From the NCBI GenBank assembly GCA_028693815.1, contig JAQUUP010000001.1:8433-72432 (forward strand): DNA of 64,000 nt, read 5' to 3'. Every line of letters begins with the position of its first letter. The stretch's first letter is position 1. This document shows positions 3,500 through 45,520 of this stretch, one piece after another. The DNA is from Candidatus Omnitrophota bacterium (lineage in GTDB: Bacteria > Omnitrophota > Gorgyraeia > Zapsychrales > Aceulaceae). The notes under the pieces are model-generated. The model made no database searches. It saw nothing but the letters and a program-made list of their open reading frames with translations, and was not told the DNA's origin. Position numbers and translations under genes: made by a program.

Positions 3500-3787
3500 T
3501 TACTTTGAAGCAACTTTTTTTACAGTCTTCTTTTTTTCCGTTTTCTCAACCGGACGAATATTAACAAATGTTACAGTCTTTTTATATGTCCCTCTTTTTT
3601 TCTCAAAATAAACTTCACCATCGCAAGCAGCCGTCAAATGCATACGTCCTGCAACGTTAATGCCTGGCTTCCACTTGTCCCCCTGGCGAGTTAAAACGGT
3701 TCCTGCCTTAACTTTAGATCCACCAGCAACTTTAATGCCTCGCGTTTCCTTGTAATTAATTTTTGATAAACCACCGACTTTTGCCAT
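3500..3787 (-). CDS. rpmA: 50S ribosomal protein L27 with a Lys-rich C-terminal extension
   Basis: 95 aa; core KAGTVLTRQGDKWKPGINVAGRMHLTAACDGEVYF matches the L27 consensus (AGxIIxRQRGTKxHPGxNVGxGxDxTLFAxxDGxVxF). Confidence 0.8.
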   Translation of the reverse strand: MAKVGGLSKINYKETRGIKVAGGSKVKAGTVLTRQGDKWKPGINVAGRMHLTAACDGEVYFEKKRGTYKKTVTFVNIRPVEKTEKKKTVKKVASK

Positions 3788-3909
3788 GAATTGCCTCCCC
3801 GAATGAGCCCCTGCCGTTTTGCTTCGCTTTTGCTTGTAAAACGAAGCAGCAGGAGCGAATTTATCCCACGCAAGCAGGATTAATGCTGTTAATAAATATT
3901 ACTCTTATT

Positions 3910-4656
3910 TTACTTTAAAATCTCGTTGACTTGTTTCTTGAGATCTTCGCTCGTTCTCGCGTTTGTTCTTTTGCCATTTATAAAAAACGTTGGCGTACCT
4001 CCTACGTCAGCTTTTCCAGCAATCGCAAGATCTTTTTGAATCATTTGCTCTAGCTGTGCATCTTGCTCTTGCATCTTTTGAACAAATTCATCTTTGTTAA
4101 TTCCAAGCTGTCCAGCTAACTCCCCATACTTGTCTTCACTTAAATCTTTAGCATTTTGAAAAATTAAATCCAACATTTCCCAATATTTCCCATACTGCTT
4201 AGCAACCAAAAGCGCTTTTGTCGCCGGTTTTGCTTGCTTGTGATAAGAAAGAGGAAAGCTCATAAAAACATAATTCACATCCTCAGGATAAACACTTACA
4301 ACATCCGCTATAATTGGATGAAACTTTTGAGAATACGGACACTGAAAGTCAGAAAATTCCACAATGGTTACTTTTGCTTCTGGGTTTCCCTTAACCATTG
4401 AACCGCTAGTATCAATATCGTAAACTTTGTTAGGATCGATCTGAGGTCGTTCGTTCTTTTGTGCACCTTTCTGACGTGCAAACCCTTGAGACGTCAACAC
4501 TTTGACTATTTGCTTTTGATTATTTTGAATAATCGTCAGCTGCTCCTCTATATTTTTCTGATAAATAAAGTTTCTTTTATACTCATTCATCTTTAGCGCA
4601 AACAGTGCGAAAAGAAAAAGAACAACAGCAGCAAACAATATTACTCTTCTTAACAT
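3910..4656 (-). CDS. DsbA-family thioredoxin-fold protein, membrane-anchored or secreted, with a monothiol CPYS active site
   Basis: 248 aa; N-terminal hydrophobic helix; VTIVEFSDFQCPYSQKFHP is a DsbA-like context but the second Cys of CxxC is Ser. Confidence 0.65.
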   Translation of the reverse strand: MLRRVILFAAVVLFLFALFALKMNEYKRNFIYQKNIEEQLTIIQNNQKQIVKVLTSQGFARQKGAQKNERPQIDPNKVYDIDTSGSMVKGNPEAKVTIVEFSDFQCPYSQKFHPIIADVVSVYPEDVNYVFMSFPLSYHKQAKPATKALLVAKQYGKYWEMLDLIFQNAKDLSEDKYGELAGQLGINKDEFVQKMQEQDAQLEQMIQKDLAIAGKADVGGTPTFFINGKRTNARTSEDLKKQVNEILK

Positions 4657-7864: not shown

Positions 7865-8659
7865 ATGTGGATTGAAAATATTATATTGGGCATCGCTCAA
7901 GGCATTGGAGAATGGCTTCCCATAAGTTCTGAAGGGCTCATTGCTCTTATTAAAATAAACTTCTTCTCTGGCGAAAACCTTTTTTCTATTATTAAACTTG
8001 CTCTTTTTCTACACCTAGGGACCTTTTGCGCAGCTTTTGTCTATTTCAGAAAAGATGTCCTTTCCCTTTTAAAAGCACTCTTTTTTTATAAAACAGCAGA
8101 AGAAAAGAACAAAAAATTACTAACCTTCTTAATTATTTCAACGACCATCAGTGGCCTGCTAGGTTTTGGGCTCATTACTCTTCTCTCTCAAATAGAAAAT
8201 CAAATACGTCTATCTGGAAAAATTATCACAGCTGGCGTAGGAATCCTTCTTCTTTTAACCGCTTTGTTACAAATTAGAACCAAAAAAACAGGTTCAAGAA
8301 ATATTTCAGACTTAAAAAAAACCGATGCCATTATCTTAGGATTCATTCAAGGCTTTGCTGTTCTTCCAGGATTATCTCGGTCTGGAACAACCGTCGCCGC
8401 ATTGCTTCTTAAGAAATTTGATAAAACAGTAGCGCTAAAACTAAGTTTTTTAATGAGCCTTCCAATCGTTCTAATTGGAAATATTTTCTTAGGGATAAAA
8501 TATTTTGAATTTAGCTTTGAGGCTCTAGCCGGATTTCTATTTTCTTTTATTTTTGGACTTCTAACAATCCACCTTCTTTTTAAAATTGCTGAAAAAGTAA
8601 ACTTTGGATATTTTATTCTTTTCTTTGGAATTCTAACAATTATTTCAGTCTTCATATAA
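7865..8659 (+). CDS. uppP: Undecaprenyl-diphosphatase
   Basis: 264 aa, 8 TM helices; ILGIAQGIGEWLPISSEG and PGLSRSGTT motifs characteristic of BacA/UppP. Confidence 0.85.
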   Translation: MWIENIILGIAQGIGEWLPISSEGLIALIKINFFSGENLFSIIKLALFLHLGTFCAAFVYFRKDVLSLLKALFFYKTAEEKNKKLLTFLIISTTISGLLGFGLITLLSQIENQIRLSGKIITAGVGILLLLTALLQIRTKKTGSRNISDLKKTDAIILGFIQGFAVLPGLSRSGTTVAALLLKKFDKTVALKLSFLMSLPIVLIGNIFLGIKYFEFSFEALAGFLFSFIFGLLTIHLLFKIAEKVNFGYFILFFGILTIISVFI

Positions 8660-10479: not shown

Positions 10480-10557
10480 ATTGCACCTCCTACAAATATA
10501 CTCTTTACCTTTCCTCCTATAATGCCATAATGATAGGGGGAAACACCCCCCCCATCA

Positions 10558-10935
10558 TTATGTTTTAATAACTATTTTCTGAGGCTGCGCTTCTTCAGAT
10601 TTTGATAATGAAACTTTTAGAACCCCATCCGTATACTCAGCCTTAATCTTTTCTCTATCGATTTGTGTATTAATTTCAAATCGGCGCTCAAAAGAAACAG
10701 GCCTTCTTTCTCTATGAAGAAGCGTATATTCCTTACCAATTTCCTCTTTCTGCTTCTTTCCTTGAATAATAAGCTGATTGCCATCCAGATTAAGATCAAG
10801 TGAATTTTTGTCGACACCCGGCATTTCTACAGCAATAATAATTTCTTTATCCTTCTCATATATATTGACAAATGGAGCAACAGTCGTCTCCTCTTCATCT
10901 TTATTTTTTCTAAACTTTTCTAACATCTTAATCAC
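10558..10935 (-). CDS. Hsp20/alpha-crystallin family small heat-shock protein
   Basis: 125 aa; APFVNIYEKDKEIIIAVEMPGVDKNSLDLNLDGNQLIIQGKK...ERRFEI...DGVLKVSLSK classic ACD. Confidence 0.85.
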   Translation of the reverse strand: MIKMLEKFRKNKDEEETTVAPFVNIYEKDKEIIIAVEMPGVDKNSLDLNLDGNQLIIQGKKQKEEIGKEYTLLHRERRPVSFERRFEINTQIDREKIKAEYTDGVLKVSLSKSEEAQPQKIVIKT

Positions 10936-32000: not shown

Positions 32001-33566
32001 AAAAAGTTGCTTAAAATAATAATAAAGAAGTTGCGGTTTTTCAGATAAGATCGCTAGCGGCGTATCACATCCCATAGATCCCACAGGCTCTTCCCCCCTG
32101 ACTGCCATAGGCCCAAGAATAACCTTAAGATCCTCGCGCGAATAGCCAAACATACGCTGACGCAATATCAAAGTTGACTGATCAACCCGAAGAGGACTAA
32201 TGTCACTAAAAAATCCATGCAATCCAACTTTGTTCTCTTGAACCCATCTTCGATACGGTTGACAGCGAGCATAAAAAGTCTTAACTTCTGTATTCTTTAA
32301 AACGCGTTTTTTCTTTAAATCAACTAAAATAATTTCTCCCGGACGCAAAGATCCTTTTTCAACAACATCCTTAGAGTCAATCGCCAAAACTCCAGCCTCA
32401 GAAGCCAGCACCATAAACCCATCTTTAGTCATCGTATATCGACAAGGACGAAGTCCGTTACGATCTAACAAAGCCCCAACAACATGACCATTACTAAAAG
32501 CAACAGCTGAAGGTCCATCCCAAGGCTCCATAAGTCCCGCATGATATTCAAAGAATCCTCTCAAGTCTGGACCAATAGGATATCTAACACCCCACGCCTG
32601 AGGAATCATCATCATCATGGCATGAGGCAAATCTCGTCCCCCATTAGCTAACAGCTCCAAAGCATTGTCTAAGCAAGCCGAATCGCTGCCACCAAAATCA
32701 ATGATTGGTAATATCTTTTTAATGTCTTCACCAAAAAGATCCGATGATAAAGATTTTTCTCGAGATTGCATCTGCTTCAAATTTCCACGCAAAGTATTAA
32801 TCTCACCATTATGTGCTAAATAACGAAACGGTTGCGCCAATTGCCACGAAGGAAATGTGTTGGTACTATAACGCTGATGGACAACGGCTAGAGCGCTCGT
32901 AAACAATGGATCTTCAAGGTCTCTATAAAAATCAGAAACCTGTGTTGCCATCATCAATCCCTTATAAACAATTGTTTGACAAGAAAAGCTTGGAATATAA
33001 AATTGATCCCCCCTAGATATTTTTTCTTGAACTTTATGCTCGATCTCTTTGCGCAAAACATATAATTTCCGTTCAAAAGTTTCAGCAGTAAGATTCTTTC
33101 CAGAAATAAAACATTGCGCGATAAAAGGCTGTTCTTGTCTGGCTTTCTCACCGAGAACATCACTGTCAACAGGAACAACTCGCCAACCTAGAAATTTTAA
33201 ACCTTCTTGTTTTGTGATGTCTTCCGTCATTTCTTGACAAATACCACGTAAATCATTTGCCTGAGGCAAAAACATCATCGCGACCCCATAACAACCTTGC
33301 CGCGGCAGAGAAATCTTAAGCGCCTGACATTCTTTTTGAAAAAAATCATCCGGAATCTGTATCAAAATTCCTGCTCCATCACCAGTCTTACCATCCCCCC
33401 CAGTCGCGCCGCGATGAAGGAGATTTTCTAAAACTTTGATTGAACGAACAACGATATCATGAGACTTTCTGCCATCAATATTAACAAGAAATCCCACGCC
33501 ACAGCTATCATGTTCAAAACAAGGATCATACATTCCCTGTTTTTTCATAACAAAATTATCACTCAT
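29028..33566 (-). CDS. gltB: Glutamate synthase large subunit
   Basis: 1512 aa; N-terminal CGVGF Ntn amidotransferase domain, central FMN/Fe-S domain, C-terminal GXGXG domain. Confidence 0.95.
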   Translation of the reverse strand: MSDNFVMKKQGMYDPCFEHDSCGVGFLVNIDGRKSHDIVVRSIKVLENLLHRGATGGDGKTGDGAGILIQIPDDFFQKECQALKISLPRQGCYGVAMMFLPQANDLRGICQEMTEDITKQEGLKFLGWRVVPVDSDVLGEKARQEQPFIAQCFISGKNLTAETFERKLYVLRKEIEHKVQEKISRGDQFYIPSFSCQTIVYKGLMMATQVSDFYRDLEDPLFTSALAVVHQRYSTNTFPSWQLAQPFRYLAHNGEINTLRGNLKQMQSREKSLSSDLFGEDIKKILPIIDFGGSDSACLDNALELLANGGRDLPHAMMMMIPQAWGVRYPIGPDLRGFFEYHAGLMEPWDGPSAVAFSNGHVVGALLDRNGLRPCRYTMTKDGFMVLASEAGVLAIDSKDVVEKGSLRPGEIILVDLKKKRVLKNTEVKTFYARCQPYRRWVQENKVGLHGFFSDISPLRVDQSTLILRQRMFGYSREDLKVILGPMAVRGEEPVGSMGCDTPLAILSEKPQLLYYYFKQLFAQITNPAIDPIREELVMSLMTFMGSCGNILTEVPQNARLIKLTHPILSNEDLERVSSLKLKDFWATTLQMGFPRKGTGEDLKEALDQLRHTAETSVRNGCSLIILSDRHLPKDVMPIPALLALSAIHQHLTNEGLRTHVGIIMETAEAREVQHIALLLGYGATAINPYLAFETVADMAQQKMLEKEVRTTRALENYIHALCKGLLKIMSKMGISTLRSYRGAQVFEAVGLNRDIIEKYFTGTVSNIEGIGLDEIAKEISTRYEQAMHDSLVLGDTLANGGQYAFRKDGERHLWTPEAIYKLQTATRNNDEKVYREYAQLINDQTKKQYTLRGLFKFKETKAISIDEVEPISSIMKRFVTSAMSFGSISREAHETLAIAMNRIGARSNSGEGGEDPARYQLLPNGDDRCSAVKQIASGRFGVTAEYLVNAKELQIKIAQGAKPGEGGQLPGHKVNEEIARVRHSTPGVTLISPPPHHDIYSIEDIKQLIFDLRNVNPQARISVKLVSEAGVGTIAAGVAKAHADMVLISGYDGGTGASPLTSMKHAGVPWELGLAETQQTLVLNNLRGCVRLQADGQMKTGRDVVIATLLGAEEFGFATASLVVCGCVMMRKCHLNTCSVGVATQDPQLRKNFSGKPEYVVNFFSLIAQEVREYLAQLGIKTMDEIVGRSDLLEVNEAIDFWKAKGLDFSRIFAQISHEKNVAVRCLESQDHDIGNVLDHKLIELSREALEKKKSVLIELPIANTNLTTGAMLSGEIAKRYGHEGLFEDTIVCRFKGAAGQSFGAFASQGMTLILEGEANDYLGKGLCGGKIIVKPYSESTYNPSENIICGNVLLYGATSGEVYIHGCVGERFAIRNSGVHVVVEGIGDHGCEYMTGGRVVILGETGINFAAGMSGGLAYIYDPESRLDGRCNLSMVDLELLNDNKDIEELKSMIEKHFFYTQSQKAKYILDHWEKEVPCFVKVFPMEYRRVLGKMMKEDEITEREEQVFK

Positions 33567-36021: not shown

Positions 36022-38118
36022 TTAAAGCATAAACAACATTTCCGCATAAGACGGAAGTGGCCAAATGTCTGCCGGAACCAATCCTTCTAAAGCATCAATC
36101 GGCGCGCGCAAGTCTTCCATGGCGAGTCTGGTTTTTACACCATCTCTTTTTTTGACAACAGCCTCTAGCTTGTCAACCAAACCTAAAGCTAATTCTGCTT
36201 GCTTTGTGATTTCTTTAAGCAGCTTACGCGTTGCCGTTGATTTTGTCTTATTAACAAATTCAACGCTCTTAATTGTTTCGGCAAGTTGATTCTGATACTC
36301 AATAACAACAGGTAAAATCATCGTTTTGGCCATGTCCGCCGCAAGTCGACCTTCAAAATCAAGAATGGTCTCATAGGTCTCTTTATAAACTTCATAGCGA
36401 GAATTTAACTCTATTTTAGTTAAAACTTTTTGTCTTTCGAATAACGCTAAAATTTCAGGTTTCTTTAGAATCTCTAAAGCCTCTGAGGTATTCTTTAAGT
36501 TCGGAAGACCTCTTTTTTTAGCCTCCTTAACCCACTCTTCTGTATAATTGTCCCCATTAAAGATAATTCTTTTATGCTCTTTAATAATACTCTTCAAAAG
36601 ATTCTGAACAGATCCATTAAAGTCTTTTTTAGCCTTTTTATCTTTTTCTAATGTTTCGCACATCTCGTCTAAGGCATCGGCGACAATTGTATTTAGAACA
36701 ATGTTTGGTCCTGCTAAATTTGCGCTTGATCCTACGGCCCGAAATTCAAACTTAGTCCCTGTAAACGCGAACGGGGATGTCCTGTTTCTATCCGTTGCGT
36801 CTCGTGGCAACGTCGGCAAAGAATCCACACCAACCTCTAACACGCCGCCTTTTTTAGATACTTTTGCTCCCCCTTTTTCAATTTGCTCAATAACATCAGC
36901 AAGTTGATCGCCTAAGAAAACAGAAATAATCGCGGGGGGCGCCTCATGAGAACCAAGCCTGTGGTCATTTCCCGCTGACGCAATCGAAACACGCAATATT
37001 TCCGCATACTTGTCAACGGCCTGAATAACAGCACAAAGCACGACTAAGAACTTTGCATTTTCATGTGGGTTGTCTCCTGGAGCTAACCAATTTTTCCCAT
37101 CAGGACCGACCACAGACCAATTGTTGTGCTTCCCTGAACCGTTAACGCCCGCAAAAGGTTTTTCATGTAAAAGACAAACAAGTCCGTGCTTTTCCGCAAC
37201 CTTTTGGGCAATTTCCATACAAATCATATTGTGATCAACCGCCAAATTAAGACTTTCAAAAACTGGCGCTACTTCATATTGCGAAGGAGCAACTTCATTA
37301 TGTCGTATTTTTGCGGGAATGCCCAATCTCCACATCTCGCGATCAAATTCTTCCATAAAACCCATAATACGCGTTTTAATCGCTCCAAAATAATGATCCG
37401 ACATCTGCTGATGCTTTGCTGGCGCTTTTCCAAAAAGAGTGCGCCCTGTCTGAATAAGATCAATTCTTTGATAATAATAATCTCTATCAATTAAAAAATA
37501 TTCTTGTTCCCCGCCTAATGTCGCGTAAGCTTGTTTGCCTTTAGACTGAATACCAAACAGCTCGCCTAGACGACAAACTTGTTTTGACAATGCTTTGATT
37601 GAACGCAAAAGCGGTGTCTTTTTGTCTAACGACTCACCATGCCATCCAATAAAATAGGTTGGAATACAAAGCGTCGCGCTTTCAGGACCCTCTTTAATAA
37701 AAGCAGGGCTTGTCGGATCCCATCCTGTATAACCGCGAGCCTCAAACGTTAAGCGAAGGCCTCCTGACGGAAAACTAGAGGCGTCCGGTTCACCTTGAAT
37801 CAATTCTTTTCCAGAAAACTTTAAAATAATTCCATCTTCTCCGTCTGGAGAGATAAAAGAATCATGCTTTTCTGCTGTAGTTCCGGTTAAAGGCTGAAAC
37901 CAATGCGTAAAATGCGTTGCTCCCTTTGAAACAGCCCACGTCTTCATCGCATCAGCGACCTCATCTGCAATAGTAGGATCTAGCATTCCCCCTGTCCTAA
38001 TTGTTTGACTCAAAGACTTATGCGCTTTCTCTGAAAGATAATTACGCATTGTTTTTAAACTAAAAACATTTTCACCAAAAAAATCAGCAACTGTTTGCAC
38101 TTCTTTTTCTTTTTTCAT
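36022..38118 (-). CDS. glnN: Glutamine synthetase type III
   Basis: 698 aa; GSIII-length protein with an N-terminal MKKEKEVQTVADFFGENVFS... region and a GS catalytic core. Confidence 0.8.
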   Translation of the reverse strand: MKKEKEVQTVADFFGENVFSLKTMRNYLSEKAHKSLSQTIRTGGMLDPTIADEVADAMKTWAVSKGATHFTHWFQPLTGTTAEKHDSFISPDGEDGIILKFSGKELIQGEPDASSFPSGGLRLTFEARGYTGWDPTSPAFIKEGPESATLCIPTYFIGWHGESLDKKTPLLRSIKALSKQVCRLGELFGIQSKGKQAYATLGGEQEYFLIDRDYYYQRIDLIQTGRTLFGKAPAKHQQMSDHYFGAIKTRIMGFMEEFDREMWRLGIPAKIRHNEVAPSQYEVAPVFESLNLAVDHNMICMEIAQKVAEKHGLVCLLHEKPFAGVNGSGKHNNWSVVGPDGKNWLAPGDNPHENAKFLVVLCAVIQAVDKYAEILRVSIASAGNDHRLGSHEAPPAIISVFLGDQLADVIEQIEKGGAKVSKKGGVLEVGVDSLPTLPRDATDRNRTSPFAFTGTKFEFRAVGSSANLAGPNIVLNTIVADALDEMCETLEKDKKAKKDFNGSVQNLLKSIIKEHKRIIFNGDNYTEEWVKEAKKRGLPNLKNTSEALEILKKPEILALFERQKVLTKIELNSRYEVYKETYETILDFEGRLAADMAKTMILPVVIEYQNQLAETIKSVEFVNKTKSTATRKLLKEITKQAELALGLVDKLEAVVKKRDGVKTRLAMEDLRAPIDALEGLVPADIWPLPSYAEMLFML

Positions 38119-38189
38119 TTTTCCTCCTCTTTAAGCTTTCCTAATCATTATTTCAAAAAGTTCTTCTTTAATAAAAACAACTCACTTCG

Positions 38190-38531
38190 CTATCCTATTG
38201 CCTCAGGCCCTTCCTCTTCAGTTCGAATACGAACACAGCGTGGCAAATCTAAAATAAAAATTTTCCCATCTCCAATATTACCAGTTTTAGCTCCCTTAAT
38301 AATCGCCTGAACCGTTGGCTCGACAAAGTCTTTATTAACAGCAATTTCTAAGCGAATTTTTTTTAAAAGATTCACCTCATGCACAACACCACGATAAGTC
38401 TCACTATACCCTTTTTGCTGGCCGCAGCCAAGAACATTCGTAACCGTCATTTTATGTACGCCCTCTTCAAATAATGACTTCTTAACATCTGGTAACTTGT
38501 GTGGCTGAATCATCGCAATAATTAGTTTCAT
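38190..38531 (-). CDS. glnK: Nitrogen regulatory protein P-II
   Basis: [42 protein letters not shown]...; T-loop RGxxY; likely start at MKLIIAMI (ORF-track start at 38549 is 6 codons upstream). Confidence 0.9.
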
Positions 38532-38560
38532 GATATTTTCCTCCGTCAATATAAGTTGTT

Positions 38561-39823
38561 TTATTGTGTTGTAAAAATCTGAAAACCTGTATAAGATTCC
38601 ATTCCGTGTTCGCCAATGTCGAGACCTTTAAGCTCTTCTTCTCCGCTAACACGCAAGCCAATCGCGGCGTCAATCAACTTAAAAATAATTCCCATCACGA
38701 CACCAACAAAACCAACCGCGGCAAAAACTCCCAACGCTTGAATACCAAGCTGAGTTACACCGCCTCCATAAAACAACCCATCCGCAGAAACACCTAAAGC
38801 TGCTTTGCCAAAAAGCCCAACCGACAAAGTTCCCCAAATGCCATTAATCCCATGAACAGGAAAAGCGCCAACCGGATCGTCGATGTGAAGCTTGTCTAAA
38901 AGAACAACTCCAAAAACAACTAAAACGCCTCCAACGCTGCCAATCACAATGGCTGCCCAAGGATCAATAAAAGCACAAGGAGCAGTGACCGCAACAAGAC
39001 CAGCTAAAGCGCCATTCATTGCCATAGAAAGATCTGGCTTTCCGAACATTTTCCAGACAACCAACATAGCTATAATGCCTCCAGCGGCGGCTGCTAAATT
39101 CGTGTTAATCGCAACGCGTGCAATTAAACTGCCGTCCCCTATACCTAGCGTCGATCCTGCGTTAAATCCAAACCACCCAAACCATAAAATAAAAACACCT
39201 AAAGAAGCCAGCGGAATGTTGTGACCTGCAATAGCATTAGCGCTTCCATCTGGATTATATTTCCCAATACGCGGTTTTAACATCATGGTTCCGATTAAAG
39301 CAGCTGTTCCACCAACAGCATGAACAACGGTTGATCCAGCAAAATCTAAAAATCCAAAATCAGCTAACCAGCCGCCACCCCAGACCCAATGACCAACAAT
39401 CGGATAAATAAAAGCAGAAATCAAGAACGAATATATCAAATAAGCCTGAAACTTCATACGCTCAGCCATGCCGCCTGCTACGATTGTTGCAGCCGCGCCA
39501 CAAAAAACAGCCTGAAACAACCAAAACGCGTACAAAGGAACATCCGCTCCAGATTCAGCTCCAACTAAAAACCAGCCCTTTAATCCAATAAACCCATTGC
39601 CAACCCCAAACATAATGGCATATCCAAAAATAAAAAATCCTAAAGATGCCATACAAAAATCAAGAAAATTCTTAGTCAAAATGTTACAGGTATTTTTAGC
39701 CCTAATAAAACCAGCCTCAACCATGCCGAATCCTGCCTGCATAAAAAACACTAAAAAAGCCGCGATAAGCACCCACAAGGTATCAATCCCTGTACGCATG
39801 CTTGCTAAATCAATTAGGTTCAT
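38561..39823 (-). CDS. amt: Ammonium transporter
   Basis: 420 aa, 11 TM helices; conserved Amt twin-His region. Confidence 0.9.
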
Positions 39824-39842
39824 TTCGCCCTCCTTTTTTTAA

Positions 39843-39872
39843 AGGATTTTCTTTCTTAAAAAAGAAAATCCT
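39843..39872 (-). promoter_or_regulatory. 11-bp perfect palindrome (AGGATTTTCTT-N8-AAGAAAATCCT) immediately upstream of the amt RBS
   Basis: Seen directly; about 15 nt upstream of the AAAGGAGGG ribosome-binding site. It could be an RNA hairpin or a dimeric protein site. Confidence 0.3.
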
Positions 39873-40004
39873 CAAAGTTAAAGCCTAAAGATGCCACCAA
39901 TGGCTTTTCACAAGGACGTCATTGCCCAAAACAAATCATTATCCTGCTCGCATCGCAGAATTAATTCCGTCAATAATTCATGTTCCATAAATTAAGACGT
40001 CATT

Positions 40005-40053
40005 AAAAAAGCCCGACTTCTTCCTTTCGATTCTCGTCGGAAAAATGTCGGAC
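40005..40053 (-). terminator. Terminator/attenuator-like hairpin plus U-tract inside the long amt leader
   Basis: Minus-strand RNA reads GUCCGAC...UUCCGAC-(18 nt)-GUCGGGC-UUUUUU. Two alternative upstream arms can pair with the same downstream arm. Confidence 0.35.
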
Positions 40054-40127
40054 ATCTTTGCCCAAACAAAAAAACCTCTCAACCCTTCATCGGATCAAGA
40101 GGACTTCATTGCCCTACTACTAACCTA

Positions 40128-40155
40128 AATATACAACATTTCTAAAATTTGTCAA
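40128..40155 (-). promoter_or_regulatory. Sigma70-like promoter (TTGACA-N16-TATATT, minus strand) about 300 nt upstream of amt; extended match to the hspR promoter
   Basis: -35 at 40150-40155 and -10 at 40128-40133 on the minus strand. 33 of about 39 nt are identical to the hspR promoter region (11968-12008), including flanks. Confidence 0.4.
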
Positions 40156-41023
40156 CAAAATCATTTCTTGCCCTTGACACTTGCCCTTGAGCACTTGCCC
40201 TTGAGCACTTGCCCTTGAGCAATTTTTGATCCTGCGAGACTTTGAGATAATTCTTCTTACTTATAACTTTTTTACCACTTTTATTCTCTAAATCTTTGCG
40301 GGCTTTTCCGGCAACACTTCCGCCAAGCCTTGCGGATTCTTTATTTTCATGCATCCCTTGAGCGTCTTTATTGCGGGGAATTTCTGTTGTTGAGGCTTCG
40401 CCAAGCATAGAGAAGATAAGCTCCAAATCATTCATATGATCCCGCAAATTCTCACGCTTTAGTTTTTTATACTTTTTGTATTCAGCAGGCGTCATATCAA
40501 ATAAATGTCGCTTTGGATATCTCAGCCGTTAGAATAGCGTAATCTCCTTGCTCCTGAATGCCTCGTTTCTGCCGTTTGTCCGTTAATTCCTCGCGGATGG
40601 CAATGCCTTGCATGCGCTTCTCAATCCAAACGTCTAAATAGCCTTTTGCTTTATACAAGGCTCTTGTGCGTTTAGTGGCAAGCTCAGGATCTTCAATTTC
40701 CTTAATCCGCTCATATCCAACCCTTGCCAGCCACCGCTTAAAAGGTTCGGCTTTGAGAGAGGGGATTGACTGAATTATACGGAAAATACCCTCGGTCTTC
40801 GCACAATCCATATTATATTTTTTTCATCCGGAGCCTCTAATTTCAGTCCGTGACAATTTGTCACGACCTCGCTACCTTCCTTTTTTAAGCGTTGCTTCAG
40901 CTTTCTCCAGTATGCCCCAGAGTCAGGGCTTCCGGTCAAAGCTCCACACACGTCAACAACCGAAAACCACCACTCATCGTTATGGATTAACCGGCGTATC
41001 TGCTTGCCCTTAAAAATAGCCAA
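40142..41023 (-). pseudogene. dinD: DNA-damage-inducible protein D (DinD / Bro-N family) homolog split by two frameshifts
   Basis: Three consecutive ORF fragments (40775-41023, 40497-40811, 40142-40495) in frames A, B, A. Together they give about 300 aa co-linear with DinD (IFKGKQIRRLIHNDEWWFSVVDVCGAL... / ...KAEPFKRWLARVGYERIKEIEDPELA...REELTDKRQKRG...YAILTAEISKA). Confidence 0.55.
40168..40222. repeat. Tandem repeat: 14-bp unit TTGCCCTTGAGCAC, about 4 copies
   Basis: Seen directly; the first copy is 13 bp (GACAC variant), the last ends ...GAGCAA. It lies in the 3' end of the dinD-like fragment and cycles through all three reading frames. Confidence 0.85.
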
Positions 41024-41104
41024 CTTATGAACTGTTTCTATTTCTTTTGATTCGATTTTATTTTTTGATATTTTTATGCCCCATTATAGAGTATTCGCCA
41101 ACTC

Positions 41105-42469
41105 TTACGGCGCTGTGCGCGCCCCACGCCCGCCAGAAGAAGAGGCGCGATTAACAGTACCTAGGACTCCAGCACCACGATTAGAACTTTCCATAAAGGT
41201 CCCTAAAGACCAGGCGCCTCCTCTCATCCCAGCGCCAACGGCGTCTATACCCGGCCAATTCGTAGCATCTGCGTTGCCCGTGTTATCTAATGCTCCATTG
41301 CCATGAGTTCCTGCGAACGCTCTTCCTGTTGTATTACCTACAGATATTGCTGCCTCAATTAAATTACCGCTCAACTCCATAATGCCGTAATACCCAGCAC
41401 CGGCTGTAACGCGTCCTGTATTGCTTGCATGCCCGGCAAACATTCCCACACGACAAGGCCCGCTAAAATCATTCTCTGTCGTTACATATAAGCAATTACC
41501 CTTACCATCGGTTTTATAATTCGCGGAAGTATTCTCATTTGCCGCGCCAGAATTTGCTAACGTATACGCGGCGTCCGCACGAGTCGCGTTACCCCAGGCA
41601 TATTCATTGGCAACGGGTACCAGCGGGCCTCTGCAGGCCTTTTCAAATTCAAGTTCAGTCATGGGACGTAAAGCCGCCCAATCCAAATAAGCCGCCACAT
41701 CAGCCCAGGATAAATAGTTGCAGGCAATTCCTTGTCCGTCAACTGTTTCATCATAATTTGCATCAGCATCTAAGTTGCATCCGTAAACAGCCGGAACTGT
41801 ATTATCTGTCCCAGCGGTTTTAATATCAAGACCAGAACGAAGAACATTCATTGCGCTAAAAGCCCCTGTTCCTGGGGCTGAACTCGGAGCCTCAGCTGTT
41901 CTGGTTTCTTGTTGATCATAGGTAAGTGTGTTTAAAAAATCACGGTATTGACCTTGGGATATTTCATATTTCATAAGATAAAAGGCATTGTAGCCTTTAG
42001 GAAAAGCGGCTGGGATAGGGCCTGCCTGATCGCCAGAATTACCTGAAGCCGTATACCAAAGGTTCCCAGCGGTTTGTGCTACGGTTAGCGCGGCTTCAGA
42101 AATTATAGATAAAGGAATGGTGGCGCCTGAGACCCAAGAGCCATCGGTAAAACTGCCTGTTTCTGTTCCTCCAGAACCAACATAAAAACTTCCGGTAGGA
42201 ATATACACCATTTCAATGCCAAAGAGTTTGAAAGTTGTTGATGAGCTTTGCACATTGGCATCAGTGAGTCCATCGGCACCATAATCCCAGACAAATTTTG
42301 CAGAAGCAAAAGTTACTGTTCCAGCACCTTTAACAGCCTTTTGAATAAAAAATCCCATGCCATCAGGAGAAACAATCTCACTGCCTTGAGGCACAACAAA
42401 TCCCGCAGGATTAACACCTATACTAGCCATGGTGGCATGATGCCATTCACCACTATAATAATATTTCAT
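41105..42469 (-). CDS. Formylglycine-generating-enzyme (FGE/SUMF1) family protein; the true N-terminus probably extends to about 42730 across a G9 tract
   Basis: MVYIPTGSFYVGSGG, YLMKYEISQGQYRDFLN, LSWADVAAYLDWAALRPMTELEFEKACRG, YAWGN and RGGAWS align with FGE-sulfatase domain blocks. The reading frame is open upstream of the annotated Met with protein-like sequence. Confidence 0.7.
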   Translation of the reverse strand: MKYYYSGEWHHATMASIGVNPAGFVVPQGSEIVSPDGMGFFIQKAVKGAGTVTFASAKFVWDYGADGLTDANVQSSSTTFKLFGIEMVYIPTGSFYVGSGGTETGSFTDGSWVSGATIPLSIISEAALTVAQTAGNLWYTASGNSGDQAGPIPAAFPKGYNAFYLMKYEISQGQYRDFLNTLTYDQQETRTAEAPSSAPGTGAFSAMNVLRSGLDIKTAGTDNTVPAVYGCNLDADANYDETVDGQGIACNYLSWADVAAYLDWAALRPMTELEFEKACRGPLVPVANEYAWGNATRADAAYTLANSGAANENTSANYKTDGKGNCLYVTTENDFSGPCRVGMFAGHASNTGRVTAGAGYYGIMELSGNLIEAAISVGNTTGRAFAGTHGNGALDNTGNADATNWPGIDAVGAGMRGGAWSLGTFMESSNRGAGVLGTVNRASSSGGRGARTAP

Positions 42470-42616
42470 AAAGACCCAGGCCGCGTCATAATTTTCATCC
42501 GTGCGCCAGCTATTGTTCCAGGTAATATCAAAAGTAAACGTGAGCGTGTCGTTGGTTGTGTCAATTTTTGATGGACCGAAATTGGCAATGGCGAGACCAT
42601 TGGCAAAAACAAGTGA

Positions 42617-42625
42617 GGGGGGGGG
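42617..42625. repeat. G9 homopolymer (C9 on the coding strand) inside the 5' region of the FGE-family gene
   Basis: Seen directly: GAGGGGGGGGGAAAAG. It separates a signal-peptide-encoding frame from the mature-protein frame. Confidence 0.9.
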
Positions 42626-42779
42626 AAAAGAAATAAAAACGCAAACAGAAAAATGGTAAGATTTAAGAATTTCTTAAAAAACATAAAAATCTCCTTTGTT
42701 AAATATTTACCCTCTAAAGATCTTCTCGCCACAAATTCTAATTTTTCACCAAACGAAAAACAAAATAAATTCGGCCTAC

Positions 42780-42808
42780 AAACTTACGTCATTATTTTCT
42801 GTAAGTTT
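42780..42808 (-). terminator. Hairpin (AAACTTAC-N13-GTAAGTTT) with a U-rich tail downstream of the DUF1016-SNase gene
   Basis: Perfect 8-bp stem; on the minus strand it is followed by UUUAUUUUGUUUUUCGUUU. Confidence 0.4.
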
Positions 42809-42813
42809 AGACC

Positions 42814-43779
42814 TCAATCATATTCTTTTGCCAGCCCCGCGTCAAGCAGTGCCTGATTCAACAGCTTCCCTTCTCTGGCAACACCATTGGCATCCGTCGC
42901 GTGAGGCAAAAAGAAAATATCCGCGAGATAGCGGTCATATTTATCGCTCTTATGCGTTTGCACAACAATAAACGCGCAATCAACAAAGGCATCTGTTACA
43001 AAACATTTAGCCCTTTGGCCTTCTTTCGTGTTTAACTCTGGGCAATCAATCCCGCGAAGGCGTAATTTTTGACGCGTCAACGTACCAAAGCCACAATCAA
43101 TCTGACTCCAAAGCGTGTCGCCGTCGATAATCTTTTCCACATAAGCCTTGAAAGTATATTGCGGTTTTTTATTTATCATTCCTGAAAGTTTTTGTGTGCG
43201 CGGCAGCTCTCGTAAGATATTAAAACCAAAATCAACAAAGATTGATTCTTTCTTGGGTTCGATGGCTACTTTTTCAGCCACCCCCAAGGTGCCCAACTCC
43301 CCTCTGCTAAAGACAAGTGTCGAAATTTTTGCTGGGTTGGTGGGCGCCGAAGAATTCGGCGCCTTCTTTTTTGTCTTTGGAATTCTAAGCGCGAGTTGTC
43401 TTTTAAGCTCGCGCGCAGAAAGGTATTTCTGCGCGCAACGGCGCTGCCACTCAAGACGTTTGTCGCTATCCTTAATGGTGAGCAGTGCCCGATAATGATT
43501 CCACCCCAATTCCGTACGCGCGTGCGGAATTGGAAACATTTGATGAAATCGTACGGAATCTCGAAGGGTCGTCTCCGCGATTTCAAGGTCCGTTGCCAAT
43601 TTCTCAAAAATATGATCGCCATATCCAGCGCGATCGCTGTAATGAAGCAAATGCTTTGAAATCGCCTCACCTATTTTCCAATAGGCAGCAATCTTGGTGC
43701 GCTCAATTTTCTTTTGACTGCTTGCTATTTCACATTTGATAAACTTAGCAAGCGTTTGATACATGACCGGCAAAAGCAT
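42814..43779 (-). CDS. DUF1016 (YhcG N-terminal domain) fused to a staphylococcal-nuclease (SNase/thermonuclease) domain
   Basis: N-terminal ...TELGWNHYRALLTIKDSDKRLEW... (DUF1016); C-terminal IIDGDTLWSQIDCG...LRLRGIDCPE...KSDKYDRYLADIF (SNase motifs DGDT, RL.GID.PE, D.YGR). Confidence 0.6.
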   Translation of the reverse strand: MLLPVMYQTLAKFIKCEIASSQKKIERTKIAAYWKIGEAISKHLLHYSDRAGYGDHIFEKLATDLEIAETTLRDSVRFHQMFPIPHARTELGWNHYRALLTIKDSDKRLEWQRRCAQKYLSARELKRQLALRIPKTKKKAPNSSAPTNPAKISTLVFSRGELGTLGVAEKVAIEPKKESIFVDFGFNILRELPRTQKLSGMINKKPQYTFKAYVEKIIDGDTLWSQIDCGFGTLTRQKLRLRGIDCPELNTKEGQRAKCFVTDAFVDCAFIVVQTHKSDKYDRYLADIFFLPHATDANGVAREGKLLNQALLDAGLAKEYD

Positions 43780-43809
43780 TTTGGGCGTAATCCTTATCCC
43801 TTCTTTTTC

Positions 43810-45060
43810 TTACAGCTTCTTTTGTAGCTCATCCATCAAAATAATGGACTCCGCCACCTCTTTCATGCTCTTACAAGAATTCATACTTTTCTTATGAATC
43901 ACTTTATGAGCTTCTTCTTCTGCCAACCCTTGAATCCGCATCAAAACACCTTTGGCCCGTTCAATCAGCTTGCGTGTTTCAAGCGCTTCTTTGGCCTTCA
44001 CCGTCTCTTCAACTAATTTTGTATTTTCAATCGCAATCGCGGCTTGGTTAGACACCATTTGAAGAACGCTCACCTCTTCTTGCGAAAAGGCATGAGGCCT
44101 CTTGGTATAAATATTAATAACGCCAATCACGCGGTCCTTAACAATCATTGGAACTGAAAGCATCGAACTCAACTGCTCTTTATCTGCAAGGTTACGATAA
44201 GCATACTTTTCTTCCATGCGAACATCAAAATACATCTTAGCTTTTTTTGCTTTCACGGCCTCGCCGGATAAAGATTTTTCAACCTTGATGTTAGGCTTTT
44301 TCTTATAATCTTCACTTAAAAACTGCGTTGCCTTAATCGAAAGCTCTTGCTTTTTCTCGTCTAACAGCATCACCGAACAAATCTTAGAATCCAACATTTC
44401 AGCCGTCACCACAACAATTAAATTTAAAATTTCATCCAAATAACTTTCTGATGTAATCGACTGGCTGACTTTCATCAATTGATCAAACTGCGCGGCCTTT
44501 TTCTTGGCTTCCGCATAAAGACGAGAATTTTCAATAACACCACTCACCTGTTTCGCGATGGTAGAAATTAAAGTCACAATGCTCTTTGAAAAATCTCTTT
44601 CTTTTTTATGCTGAACATTAATAACGCCAATAGTCGATTTCTTAAAAATAATAGGAATAGAAAGAAAGGCCTCGTATTTATCTTCAGGCAAAACATCAAA
44701 ATTCTTAAAACGAGAATCTTTGTAGGCATTTTTCTTGATATGAACTATTTTACTCTCTTTGGCAACCCAACCAGTGATTCCTTCTCCAGCTTTTAATGTC
44801 ACAGCGCCAAGCTCTTTTTTGTGCGGCGTTTTTGACGCCAGCAAAGTCAAGACCTTCTTTTTACTGTCAAAAAGATACACAAAAACAGAATCTGCTCTTG
44901 TGATTGTATTGATAATTCTAACAACCTCACCTAAAATAAAGCTTAAATCAAGGTCCGAACTTGTCAAATCAACAATTTTACTCAAAATCTCTATCTGCTG
45001 AGATTGAGTAATCACTGATTTCTTAGGTTGCGTTTTTTTCGTTCTTTCAATCATAATCAA
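43810..45060 (-). CDS. GAF-GAF-ANTAR RNA-binding antitermination regulator
   Basis: 416 aa; two GAF-like blocks; C-terminal ...LETRKLIERAKGVLMRIQGLAEEEAHKVIHKKSMNSCKSMKEVAESII matches ANTAR. Confidence 0.7.
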   Translation of the reverse strand: MIMIERTKKTQPKKSVITQSQQIEILSKIVDLTSSDLDLSFILGEVVRIINTITRADSVFVYLFDSKKKVLTLLASKTPHKKELGAVTLKAGEGITGWVAKESKIVHIKKNAYKDSRFKNFDVLPEDKYEAFLSIPIIFKKSTIGVINVQHKKERDFSKSIVTLISTIAKQVSGVIENSRLYAEAKKKAAQFDQLMKVSQSITSESYLDEILNLIVVVTAEMLDSKICSVMLLDEKKQELSIKATQFLSEDYKKKPNIKVEKSLSGEAVKAKKAKMYFDVRMEEKYAYRNLADKEQLSSMLSVPMIVKDRVIGVINIYTKRPHAFSQEEVSVLQMVSNQAAIAIENTKLVEETVKAKEALETRKLIERAKGVLMRIQGLAEEEAHKVIHKKSMNSCKSMKEVAESIILMDELQKKL

Positions 45061-45151
45061 TTTGAGGGTCTTTTTATAAATAGCTTAGAGAATATTTTAA
45101 CACAAAAAAACAAAACTTCCCTTTTCTCTGGAAACACGCTAAAATATCAAT

Positions 45152-45520
45152 ATGGAAAAAAAGATTTTAATTGTTGATGATGATCCTGTTCAAACAAAAC
45201 TTTTGGCGACGAAGCTTCCAGAAAATGGATACTCTGTTTTGTCAGCTACTCAAGCGGCCACGGGTCTCCAAATGGCCATGGACAAATATCCAGATTTAAT
45301 TATTCTAGATGTTATGATGCCTATTATAAATGGATACAATCTTTGTCAGCTTATTAAGAATGACCCTAAACACAAAGATATTCCCATTATTCTTTTAACA
45401 TCCCGCGATAAAGAAAAAGATATCGAAATCGGTCGCGATGTCGGAGCAGATGCTTACTTAATAAAACCTGTCAGCATTCCTTCCTTGCTAGAGAAAATAA
45501 AAGAACTTCTAAACAACTAG
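45152..45520 (+). CDS. Single-domain response regulator (CheY-like REC)
   Basis: 122 aa; KILIVDDDP...DLIILDVMMPIINGY...LTSRD...YLIKP. Confidence 0.85.
   Translation: MEKKILIVDDDPVQTKLLATKLPENGYSVLSATQAATGLQMAMDKYPDLIILDVMMPIINGYNLCQLIKNDPKHKDIPIILLTSRDKEKDIEIGRDVGADAYLIKPVSIPSLLEKIKELLNN

Follow-up and report, generated by a model that had tools for sequence, protein, structure and literature searches.

A nine-cytosine tract cuts the export signal off an FGE-type C-lectin of an Omnitrophota bacterium: a probable slipped-strand OFF allele as candidate contingency locus or early pseudogene

The 64,000-nucleotide (64-kb) stretch of Candidatus Omnitrophota contig JAQUUP010000001.1 analysed here (positions 8,433 to 72,432; hereafter the window) carries on its minus strand a gene for a secreted binding protein with an FGE-type domain. 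We found that a run of nine cytosines in the mRNA (C9), seen as G9 on the plus strand, cuts the export signal off this otherwise intact protein, and that the gene is OFF as sequenced. We consider this a real OFF allele of the slipped-strand kind and read the locus either as a candidate for contingency switching or as a pseudogene at an early stage. Our tentative preference, which we hold at a little below an even chance, is for a translational ON/OFF locus of the contingency type caught in its OFF phase.

To define the break, we read both frames across the tract. Frame A starts at the ATG at 42684, reads MFFKKFLNLTIFLFAFLFLFPPPHLFLPMV...PGSL and ends at a TGA stop (42466-42468); the leader that it encodes is MFFKKFLNLTIFLFAFLFLFPPP, and the sequence that it encodes past the tract is unrelated to the family protein. 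Frame B is open past the tract, where it reads SLVFANGLAIANFG... and then ...SLVFANGLAIANFGPSKIDTTNDTLTFTFDITWNNSWRTDENYDAAWVF-MKYYY..., and runs on to the stop at 41105. After its upstream stop, the open reading frame (ORF) listing shows no ATG, GTG or TTG start in frame B ahead of the ATG at 42469, which encodes M73 of the fused protein. Adding one cytosine in silico (C10) yields MFFKKFLNLTIFLFAFLFLFPPPSLVFANG..., a preprotein of 526 amino acids (aa), and removing two (C7) yields ...LFPPSLVFANG..., a preprotein of 525 aa; the C9 state thus truncates the product after the leader, and a change of +1 or −2 restores the ON frame. An earlier note, made from the sequence alone, had proposed that a signal peptide is split from a mature FGE-domain protein at this site, that G10 or G7 would fuse the two into a preprotein with a VFA↓N cleavage site (arrow), and that the secreted protein is OFF or leaderless at G9. 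The split was confirmed in both frames, and the fusions and the OFF state hold in silico. The left boundary given there, 42732, belongs to a GTG that opens a mechanically called ORF of 88 aa; the gene in fact starts at the ATG at 42684, which is preceded by the strong Shine–Dalgarno sequence AAAGGAG. The candidate promoter further upstream (Table 1) is a consensus match only and no proof of function. At nine nucleotides, the tract exceeds every other homopolymer of the window: runs of G on the plus strand number 6801, 1094, 133, 22, 5 and 1 for lengths one to six, followed by the single run of nine.

The leader has the features of a Sec signal peptidase I substrate, with an n-region MFFKK (charge +2) followed by FLNLTIFLFAFLFLF and then PPPSLVFA↓N. 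Its hydrophobic core spans 15 residues, with a Kyte–Doolittle peak of 2.9 over residues 9-19, and the cleavage site has V at −3 and A at −1. With the C10 fusion as query, 6,514 proteins among 8,000 candidates scored matched at E <= 0.001; the 120 matches listed are about 500-700 aa long, apart from a few that are longer or truncated, and each spans at least 80% of the 526 aa of the query. The fusion aligns end to end, from residue 1, with 33 homologues (34-sequence alignment A1), and all 34 members have an N-terminal signal peptide ending in (A/F)-A↓N-N. No intact homologue starts at MKYYY without a leader; all are exported preproteins. Ten residues that are invariant or nearly so in this alignment (N29, W56, N58, S59, W60, N65, D67, A68, W70 and F72) precede M73, which is itself A or V in many homologues. 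The window gene has lost none of the 57 invariant and 56 near-invariant residues of the family, its 454 codons are open, and together with the retained Shine–Dalgarno and promoter-like sequences this leaves it pristine apart from the one-base frame error. An AlphaFold2 (AF2) model of the fused protein (predicted local distance difference test (pLDDT) 86.6, predicted template-modelling score 0.89) has a leader helix at residues 2-19, disorder at 19-28 and, with pLDDT above 90, strands 32-42, 47-61 and 66-77 in an N-terminal beta-sandwich, so that residues 30-77 lie inside a folded domain. On sequence comparison, these data show the fused 526-aa reading to be the ancestral gene. A protein initiated at M73 would stay in the cytoplasm, without the signal peptide, the ten conserved residues and the three strands. 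The exact 454-aa ORF is in NCBI as protein P0001, a cluster of one from a Candidatus Omnitrophica metagenome-assembled genome (MAG) contig of 190,578 bp; this public entry is mis-named and represents a truncated piece of a secreted 526-aa binding protein whose gene is frameshifted.

Table 1. Features at the tract and next to it (window coordinates)
Feature	Coordinates	Strand	Remarks
Promoter-like TTGACG-17-TATGAT	42817..42845	-	10/12 consensus matches; inside the 3' end of the DUF1016/SNase gene
Shine–Dalgarno AAAGGAG	42691..42697	-	6 nt ahead of ATG 42684
Leader ORF, frame A	42466..42684	-	72 codons; Sec signal peptide, then out of frame; TGA overlaps ATG 42469
C9 homopolymer, frameshift site	42617..42625	-	In signal-peptide c-region, FPPP then S; equal length in Logan contig L003
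Frame-B open segment without start codon	42470..42616	-	Signal-peptidase site LVFA↓NG and first beta-sandwich strands
Annotated 454-aa ORF (P0001, 'SUMF1/EgtB/PvdO family')	41105..42469	-	Rest of beta-sandwich and FGE-type C-lectin domain
DGR VR-equivalent C-terminal segment, GAGMRGGAW...GGRGARTAP	41105..41240	-	Aligns with verified VRs of relatives
Bro-N/antirepressor pseudogene	40142..41023	-	Three ORFs, two frameshifts: A7 at 40818-40824 and TTTATTT near 40497

The protein matches Pfam PF03781 (FGE-sulfatase; E = 9e-12), and Foldseek aligned residues of about 165-526 with FGE crystal structures (E of about 1e-7, target template-modelling score of about 0.55, 14-18% identity). It shares this fold with SUMF1/FGE but differs in having an extra N-terminal beta-sandwich, a Sec leader and a C-terminal segment that is hypervariable in relatives. 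Alignment A1 has no invariant or near-invariant Cys column, and the catalytic Cys pair of the copper site is not conserved. We therefore rejected a catalytic FGE/SUMF1 enzyme and regard the protein as a binding scaffold, because no Cys is conserved across the family. The earlier note had likened it to GldJ/GldK. These gliding and type IX secretion lipoproteins (GldK is PorK) likewise have an FGE-sulfatase domain and an envelope location, but the analogy found no support: the protein matched no NCBIfam family at E <= 1e-3, LVFA↓NG has no lipobox Cys, and the host is an Omnitrophota bacterium.

Sequence comparison instead places the protein in a family of FGE-type C-lectins that includes bona fide variable proteins of diversity-generating retroelements (DGRs), because mismatches between the variable repeat (VR) and the template repeat (TR) are almost confined to template adenines. 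In L009, from Ca. Velamenicoccus archaeovorus LiM, an Avd-like gene, a TR rich in Asn codons and a reverse transcriptase (RT) lie between two paralogues, and tblastn with the L009 RT and Avd found the same pair next to family members in L005, L013 and L015. In five genes, the last approximately 130 nt depart from the nearby TR almost exclusively where the TR has an adenine (80 of 81 mismatches: 16/16 and 16/16 in L009, 18/18 in L013, 17/18 in L015 and 13/13 in L005). These family genes are 44-55% identical to the window protein. Their complete cassettes of target, Avd, TR and RT, with a second target in L009 (59-5554), come from Omnitrophota and related MAGs. The window protein resembles DGR variable proteins of the Treponema denticola TvpA type in its FGE-sulfatase domain, signal peptide and C-terminal RGGxW...GGRGxRTAP, and the GC-rich 3' end of its gene matches the end of the L005 TR at 27 of 33 nt, where the L005 VR is identical to that TR. 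Unlike the targets in those four loci, however, the window copy has no RT, Avd or TR in the 64-kb window (tblastn, blastn), and neither a second copy of its last 250 nt nor a second family copy was found there. An active local DGR target is thus rejected, and the window copy is at best a remote or orphaned one. The L009 locus also contains a G21 homopolymer (3787-3807; about 652.7 kb in the complete genome NZ_CP019384.1), 45 nt past the RT stop and 194 nt ahead of the start of the second target paralogue. No sigma-70-like promoter was found around it; a promoter spacer, a cassette boundary and an assembly feature are all possible explanations.

To understand how the tract arose, we compared its codons with those of 36 window genes, which use CCC for 8% of their Pro codons and TTC for 10% of their Phe codons. 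The other two PPP motifs in these genes are both encoded by CCGCCACCA, and the codon-usage probability of TTC CCC CCC CCC is about 5e-5. The third-position GC content (GC3) of the gene is 0.341, equal to that of housekeeping genes, and this host-like value weakened the idea of a foreign GC island. A third-order Markov simulation, which is generous, expects about 0.10 G/C runs of at least nine per 64-kb window, so a few such runs per genome could occur by chance. At the site of the tract, L088 (protein P0005) reads ATC CCG TCT (I-P-S) and L004 reads TTT CCG AGC (FPS). Because both have a single Pro codon there, the tract is, by sequence comparison, a derived, lineage-specific expansion of one Pro codon that makes the c-region two residues longer. 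L088 (4001-5689 of Logan SRR22315505_123438) is an intact 562-aa family member with 50% identity from the same sequencing run, and it lies without a tract among housekeeping genes. Its flanks match the window in GC content (35.6%), and its locus correlates with the window in tetranucleotide composition at r = 0.974, which suggests a probable paralogue from the same genome. No DGR was found within 4 kb upstream or 0.8 kb downstream of it. A common template for the two genes was rejected, as their VR-equivalents are unrelated except at the GC-rich 3' end.

We then examined whether C9 could be an assembly artefact. An independently assembled Logan contig of SRR22315505 is 100% identical to the window over 40841-45469 (4,629 nt), C9 included, and a second contig of that run is identical over 37142-40870 (about 3.7 kb). 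The 49 intact ORFs of the window (56.7 kb) contain 79 homopolymers of at least 7 nt, 17 of them of at least 8 nt, with zero frame errors; because of this, we consider the window assembly accurate up to 8-mers. When an indel of one base was simulated in either direction at every homopolymer of the window, ORFs merged at six sites. Five of these are adjacent genes with full-length Pfam domains and no frameshift, and the sixth, in the neighbouring Bro-N gene, is the only real one. The simulation and the Pfam check led us to reject a generally error-ridden assembly. The two Logan contigs (155077 and 69326) meet at 40841-40870 with an exact 30-nt overlap, which is k − 1 if, as we assume, the Logan k-mer length is 31. 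The overlap implies a branch in the de Bruijn graph, for example from a Bro-N paralogue or a strain variant with the same 30-mer, and the MAG contig bridges this break.

By the usual marks of phase variation at simple sequence repeats (SSRs), the locus has a repeat of at least nine within an ORF, frame toggling in silico and an otherwise intact gene; at least nine is also the poly-G/C threshold that PhasomeIt applies in calling phase-variable genes of Neisseria (PMC5953494). A tract of variable length in orthologues or paralogues is missing, as no relative has the tract. The phase-variable switch proposed in the earlier note is therefore sound in mechanism and in tract length and unproven as a switch, with no length variant seen. 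Several observations weigh against a contingency locus. Elsewhere in the family, G/C runs of at least seven are absent from the leader (103 copies at 83 loci, and L088), and none of 60 protein N-termini inspected contains PPP. Neither a fused nor an alternative allele was found among 5.8 billion protein clusters, a flank-anchored DNA pattern had 0 matches in JGI metagenome contigs, and public assemblies hold a single allele, represented by P0001 and the identical Logan contig. The 64-kb window contains no other candidate contingency tract. The gene adjacent to ours, a Bro-N gene, is a true pseudogene, and the three closest relatives carry irreversible nonsense mutations, which shows simple loss to be frequent in this clade. 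A literature search returned nothing for the run accession, for DGRs or phase variation in Omnitrophota, or for DGRs combined with phase variation.

Other tracts that we considered did not qualify. The C8 at 10546-10553 was rejected as a terminator-like hairpin stem: on the minus strand, 10540-10580 places this run, there G8, in the stem TGATGGGGGGGG-TGTT-TCCCCCTATCA right after the stop of ORF 10558-10935. The G7 at 33395-33401 was rejected as an in-frame GG codon pair in gltB (glutamate synthase). In L086, which encodes a Bacteroidota-type family member (P0006, 52% identity), a G10 at 1191-1200 precedes the start codon by about 54 nt, flanked by TTGCAA and TAATTT in a promoter-spacer-like position. 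All four loci read directly (L086, L087, L091 and L092) have G10, and the N-termini of two more cluster members, equivalent to six more contigs, also imply G10. With no variation in the length of this tract, a family-wide link with 5' G/C tracts was rejected.

The state of the Bro-N neighbour and of the relatives bears on decay. The reconstructed Bro-N protein gives a single uninterrupted alignment with an intact plasmid gene over residues 1-270 (64% identity), and Logan contig 69326 shows both breaks too. Of 103 long family matches, only the closest relatives have internal stops; the stops in L003 and L076 lie upstream of the true start. L001 (62% identity) has TGG changed to TGA at the position of W70 (320-322), 6 nt before the Met equivalent to M73. 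L004 (69% best-segment identity) has TGG changed to TAG at the position of W133 (about 4409-4411), and the same TAG is found in L002 (160-162), an overlapping contig, so that two assemblies from different samples agree. These stops point to recurrent recent inactivation or, less likely, stop-codon reassignment. The null relatives may mean that the gene is dispensable in this clade, as expected of a pseudogene, or that display is frequently counter-selected, a regime that favours a reversible switch. No DGR is in reach of L001, L002 or L004, and no synteny was found with L004, the closest full-length relative. The L004/L002 gene has an N-terminal part of about 160 residues that is nearly identical to P0009 (L089, 539 aa, sample set ERZ724080) and a remainder that is 83% identical to the window protein, a mosaic that suggests paralogue recombination or a chimeric assembly. 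The gene upstream of ours (42814-43779, minus strand) unusually joins a DUF1016 N-terminal domain to a staphylococcal-nuclease (SNase) domain whose match ends at profile position 77 of 107, at the end of the protein. Its GC3 of 0.457 is above that of neighbouring genes; possibly this is a mobile-element or defence gene in truncated form.

We considered whether the frameshift is instead the first step of ordinary decay, a one-off slip in a fortuitously long C run of a dispensable, orphaned DGR-family gene without selected switching. We find this quite possible, although we would not expect it to be so. The Bro-N neighbour has two frameshifts, both in Logan contigs and one in a short T run that is not error-prone; the only close relatives are null, whereas about 100 more distant copies are all free of internal stops; RT, Avd and TR are absent from the window and from the surroundings of L004 and L001; an intact paralogue is probably present in the same genome; and the tract is common to no relative. 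Comparison with related loci, which the earlier note had suggested, hence yielded no carrier of the tract, and the context fits gene decay equally well. Simple decay is harder to reconcile with a gene that is pristine but for a single base and with a tract that itself needs explaining, since it consists of three consecutive copies of the rarest Pro codon despite host-like GC3. A C9/C10 run would moreover revert at high frequency whatever its history. The repeat resembles a classic slippage switch, but it may instead mark a dying gene. A consensus or sequencing error, under which the genome would really carry C10 and an intact gene, appears unlikely. The frameshift does fall in the longest homopolymer of the window, where a miscall is likeliest, and the correction needed is a one-base under-call, the commonest error type. 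An error of this kind is still conceivable because C9 is the only run of at least nine and the MAG and Logan assemblies probably share the same reads from one run. On the other side, two assemblers agree base for base over both matching segments, the runs of 7 and 8 nt inside intact ORFs are free of frame errors, and the Bro-N breaks include a non-homopolymer context and so represent real frameshift mutations at the locus. The homopolymer error that the earlier note had offered as its alternative is thus weakened and kept on these grounds.

Two further explanations would have the C9 allele make a functional protein. Programmed recoding, by −1 frameshifting on C CCC CCC CC (possibly with polyproline stalling) or by transcriptional slippage, would yield the full-length protein and is very unlikely. 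The required shift is −1, tRNA-Pro can re-pair perfectly on the run, and a homopolymer of 9 nt spans the whole RNA:DNA hybrid. However, there is no downstream stimulator (minimum free energy −17.3 kcal/mol, z = +0.67 versus shuffles), and no homologue has a tract or a frameshift at the site. The run also departs from the canonical X XXY YYZ heptamer, whose YYZ is A/U-rich, and bacterial transcriptional slippage is documented mainly for A/T runs. With downstream RNA whose structure does not exceed that of shuffles and no conservation in homologues, we rejected a programmed −1 frameshift site. It is even less credible that the annotation is right and the 454-aa leaderless protein is functional from M73, perhaps by termination–reinitiation. 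In its favour, the frame-A stop overlaps the annotated start as ATGA (42466-42469), the classic arrangement for translational coupling, and the L001 nonsense codon lies just ahead of the same Met. The overlap is probably a coincidence, because open stretches of similar length occur elsewhere in the same frame. No Shine–Dalgarno-like motif precedes the ATG at 42469, M73 is A or V in many homologues, and all intact homologues are exported. The leaderless product would also lack the invariant D67 and W70, eight other conserved residues, strands 32-42 and 47-61 and most of 66-77.

On the contingency reading that we tentatively prefer, a single Pro codon in the signal-peptide c-region would have expanded in this lineage to a hypermutable poly-C. 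C10 would then have become C9, most simply by slipped-strand mispairing in replication. Ribosomes would load at the Shine–Dalgarno sequence and the ATG at 42684, translate the n- and h-regions of the leader, lose frame in the tract and terminate at 42466. The gene would be OFF because the frame is lost in the tract and the mature protein is left without its own start before M73. A slip of +1 or −2 would return it to ON, so that the loss would be reversible and the switching might be maintained by selection.

Mechanisms of this kind are well known from pilC, nalP and opa (PMC5953494), and the combination of host phylum and DGR-type family would be what is new. In Neisseria, pilC carries a genic G(9-20) and nalP a C(9-13) (PMC5953494). 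The window gene is like both in having a G/C run of at least nine near the 5' end of an ORF, a frame toggled by ±1, an exported binding protein as product and a lineage-specific tract. The CTCTT/CTTCT repeats of the Neisseria opa leader are an analogue with a different repeat unit, and the repeats of opa and pilC are placed within the leader. Unlike in Neisseria, the Omnitrophota locus is represented by one allele from one sample, with no length variation observed and no other candidate tract in 64 kb; we know of no phasome for this uncultivated host. The locus also resembles homopolymer-frameshift pseudogenes of bacteria that are reduced or host-dependent, in which a one-base error lies in a homopolymer of an otherwise intact gene; some of these, with poly-A tracts in endosymbionts, are rescued by transcriptional slippage. 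It differs from them in having a poly-C that is unique in the window, a non-essential exported product and no evidence of rescue that we could find.

DGR targets are mostly exported binding proteins, and DGR-hypervaried, exported ligand-binding proteins are a class under fluctuating selection (PMC8144416). Omnitrophota are described as ultra-small and often host-dependent (PMC10066038). It is possible, though improbable, that two layers of variation act on one receptor family, with DGR hypermutation of the C-lectin tip joined by a poly-C export switch of an individual paralogue; the null alleles that arose independently in the three closest relatives would then reflect strong fluctuating selection against display in ultra-small, probably host-attached cells, and an evolved SSR would make its loss reversible. 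If the tract does not switch, the public annotation of the 454-aa protein as a 'SUMF1/EgtB/PvdO nonheme iron enzyme' is still truncated and mis-named, and the repeated inactivation in this clade bears on the surface repertoires that are inferred from MAGs. If it does switch, it would be the first indication known to us of contingency-type phase variation in Omnitrophota, uncultivated nanobacteria that are thought to depend or prey on other cells, and a switch on a DGR-diversified family would link two mechanisms of hypervariation at the cell surface.

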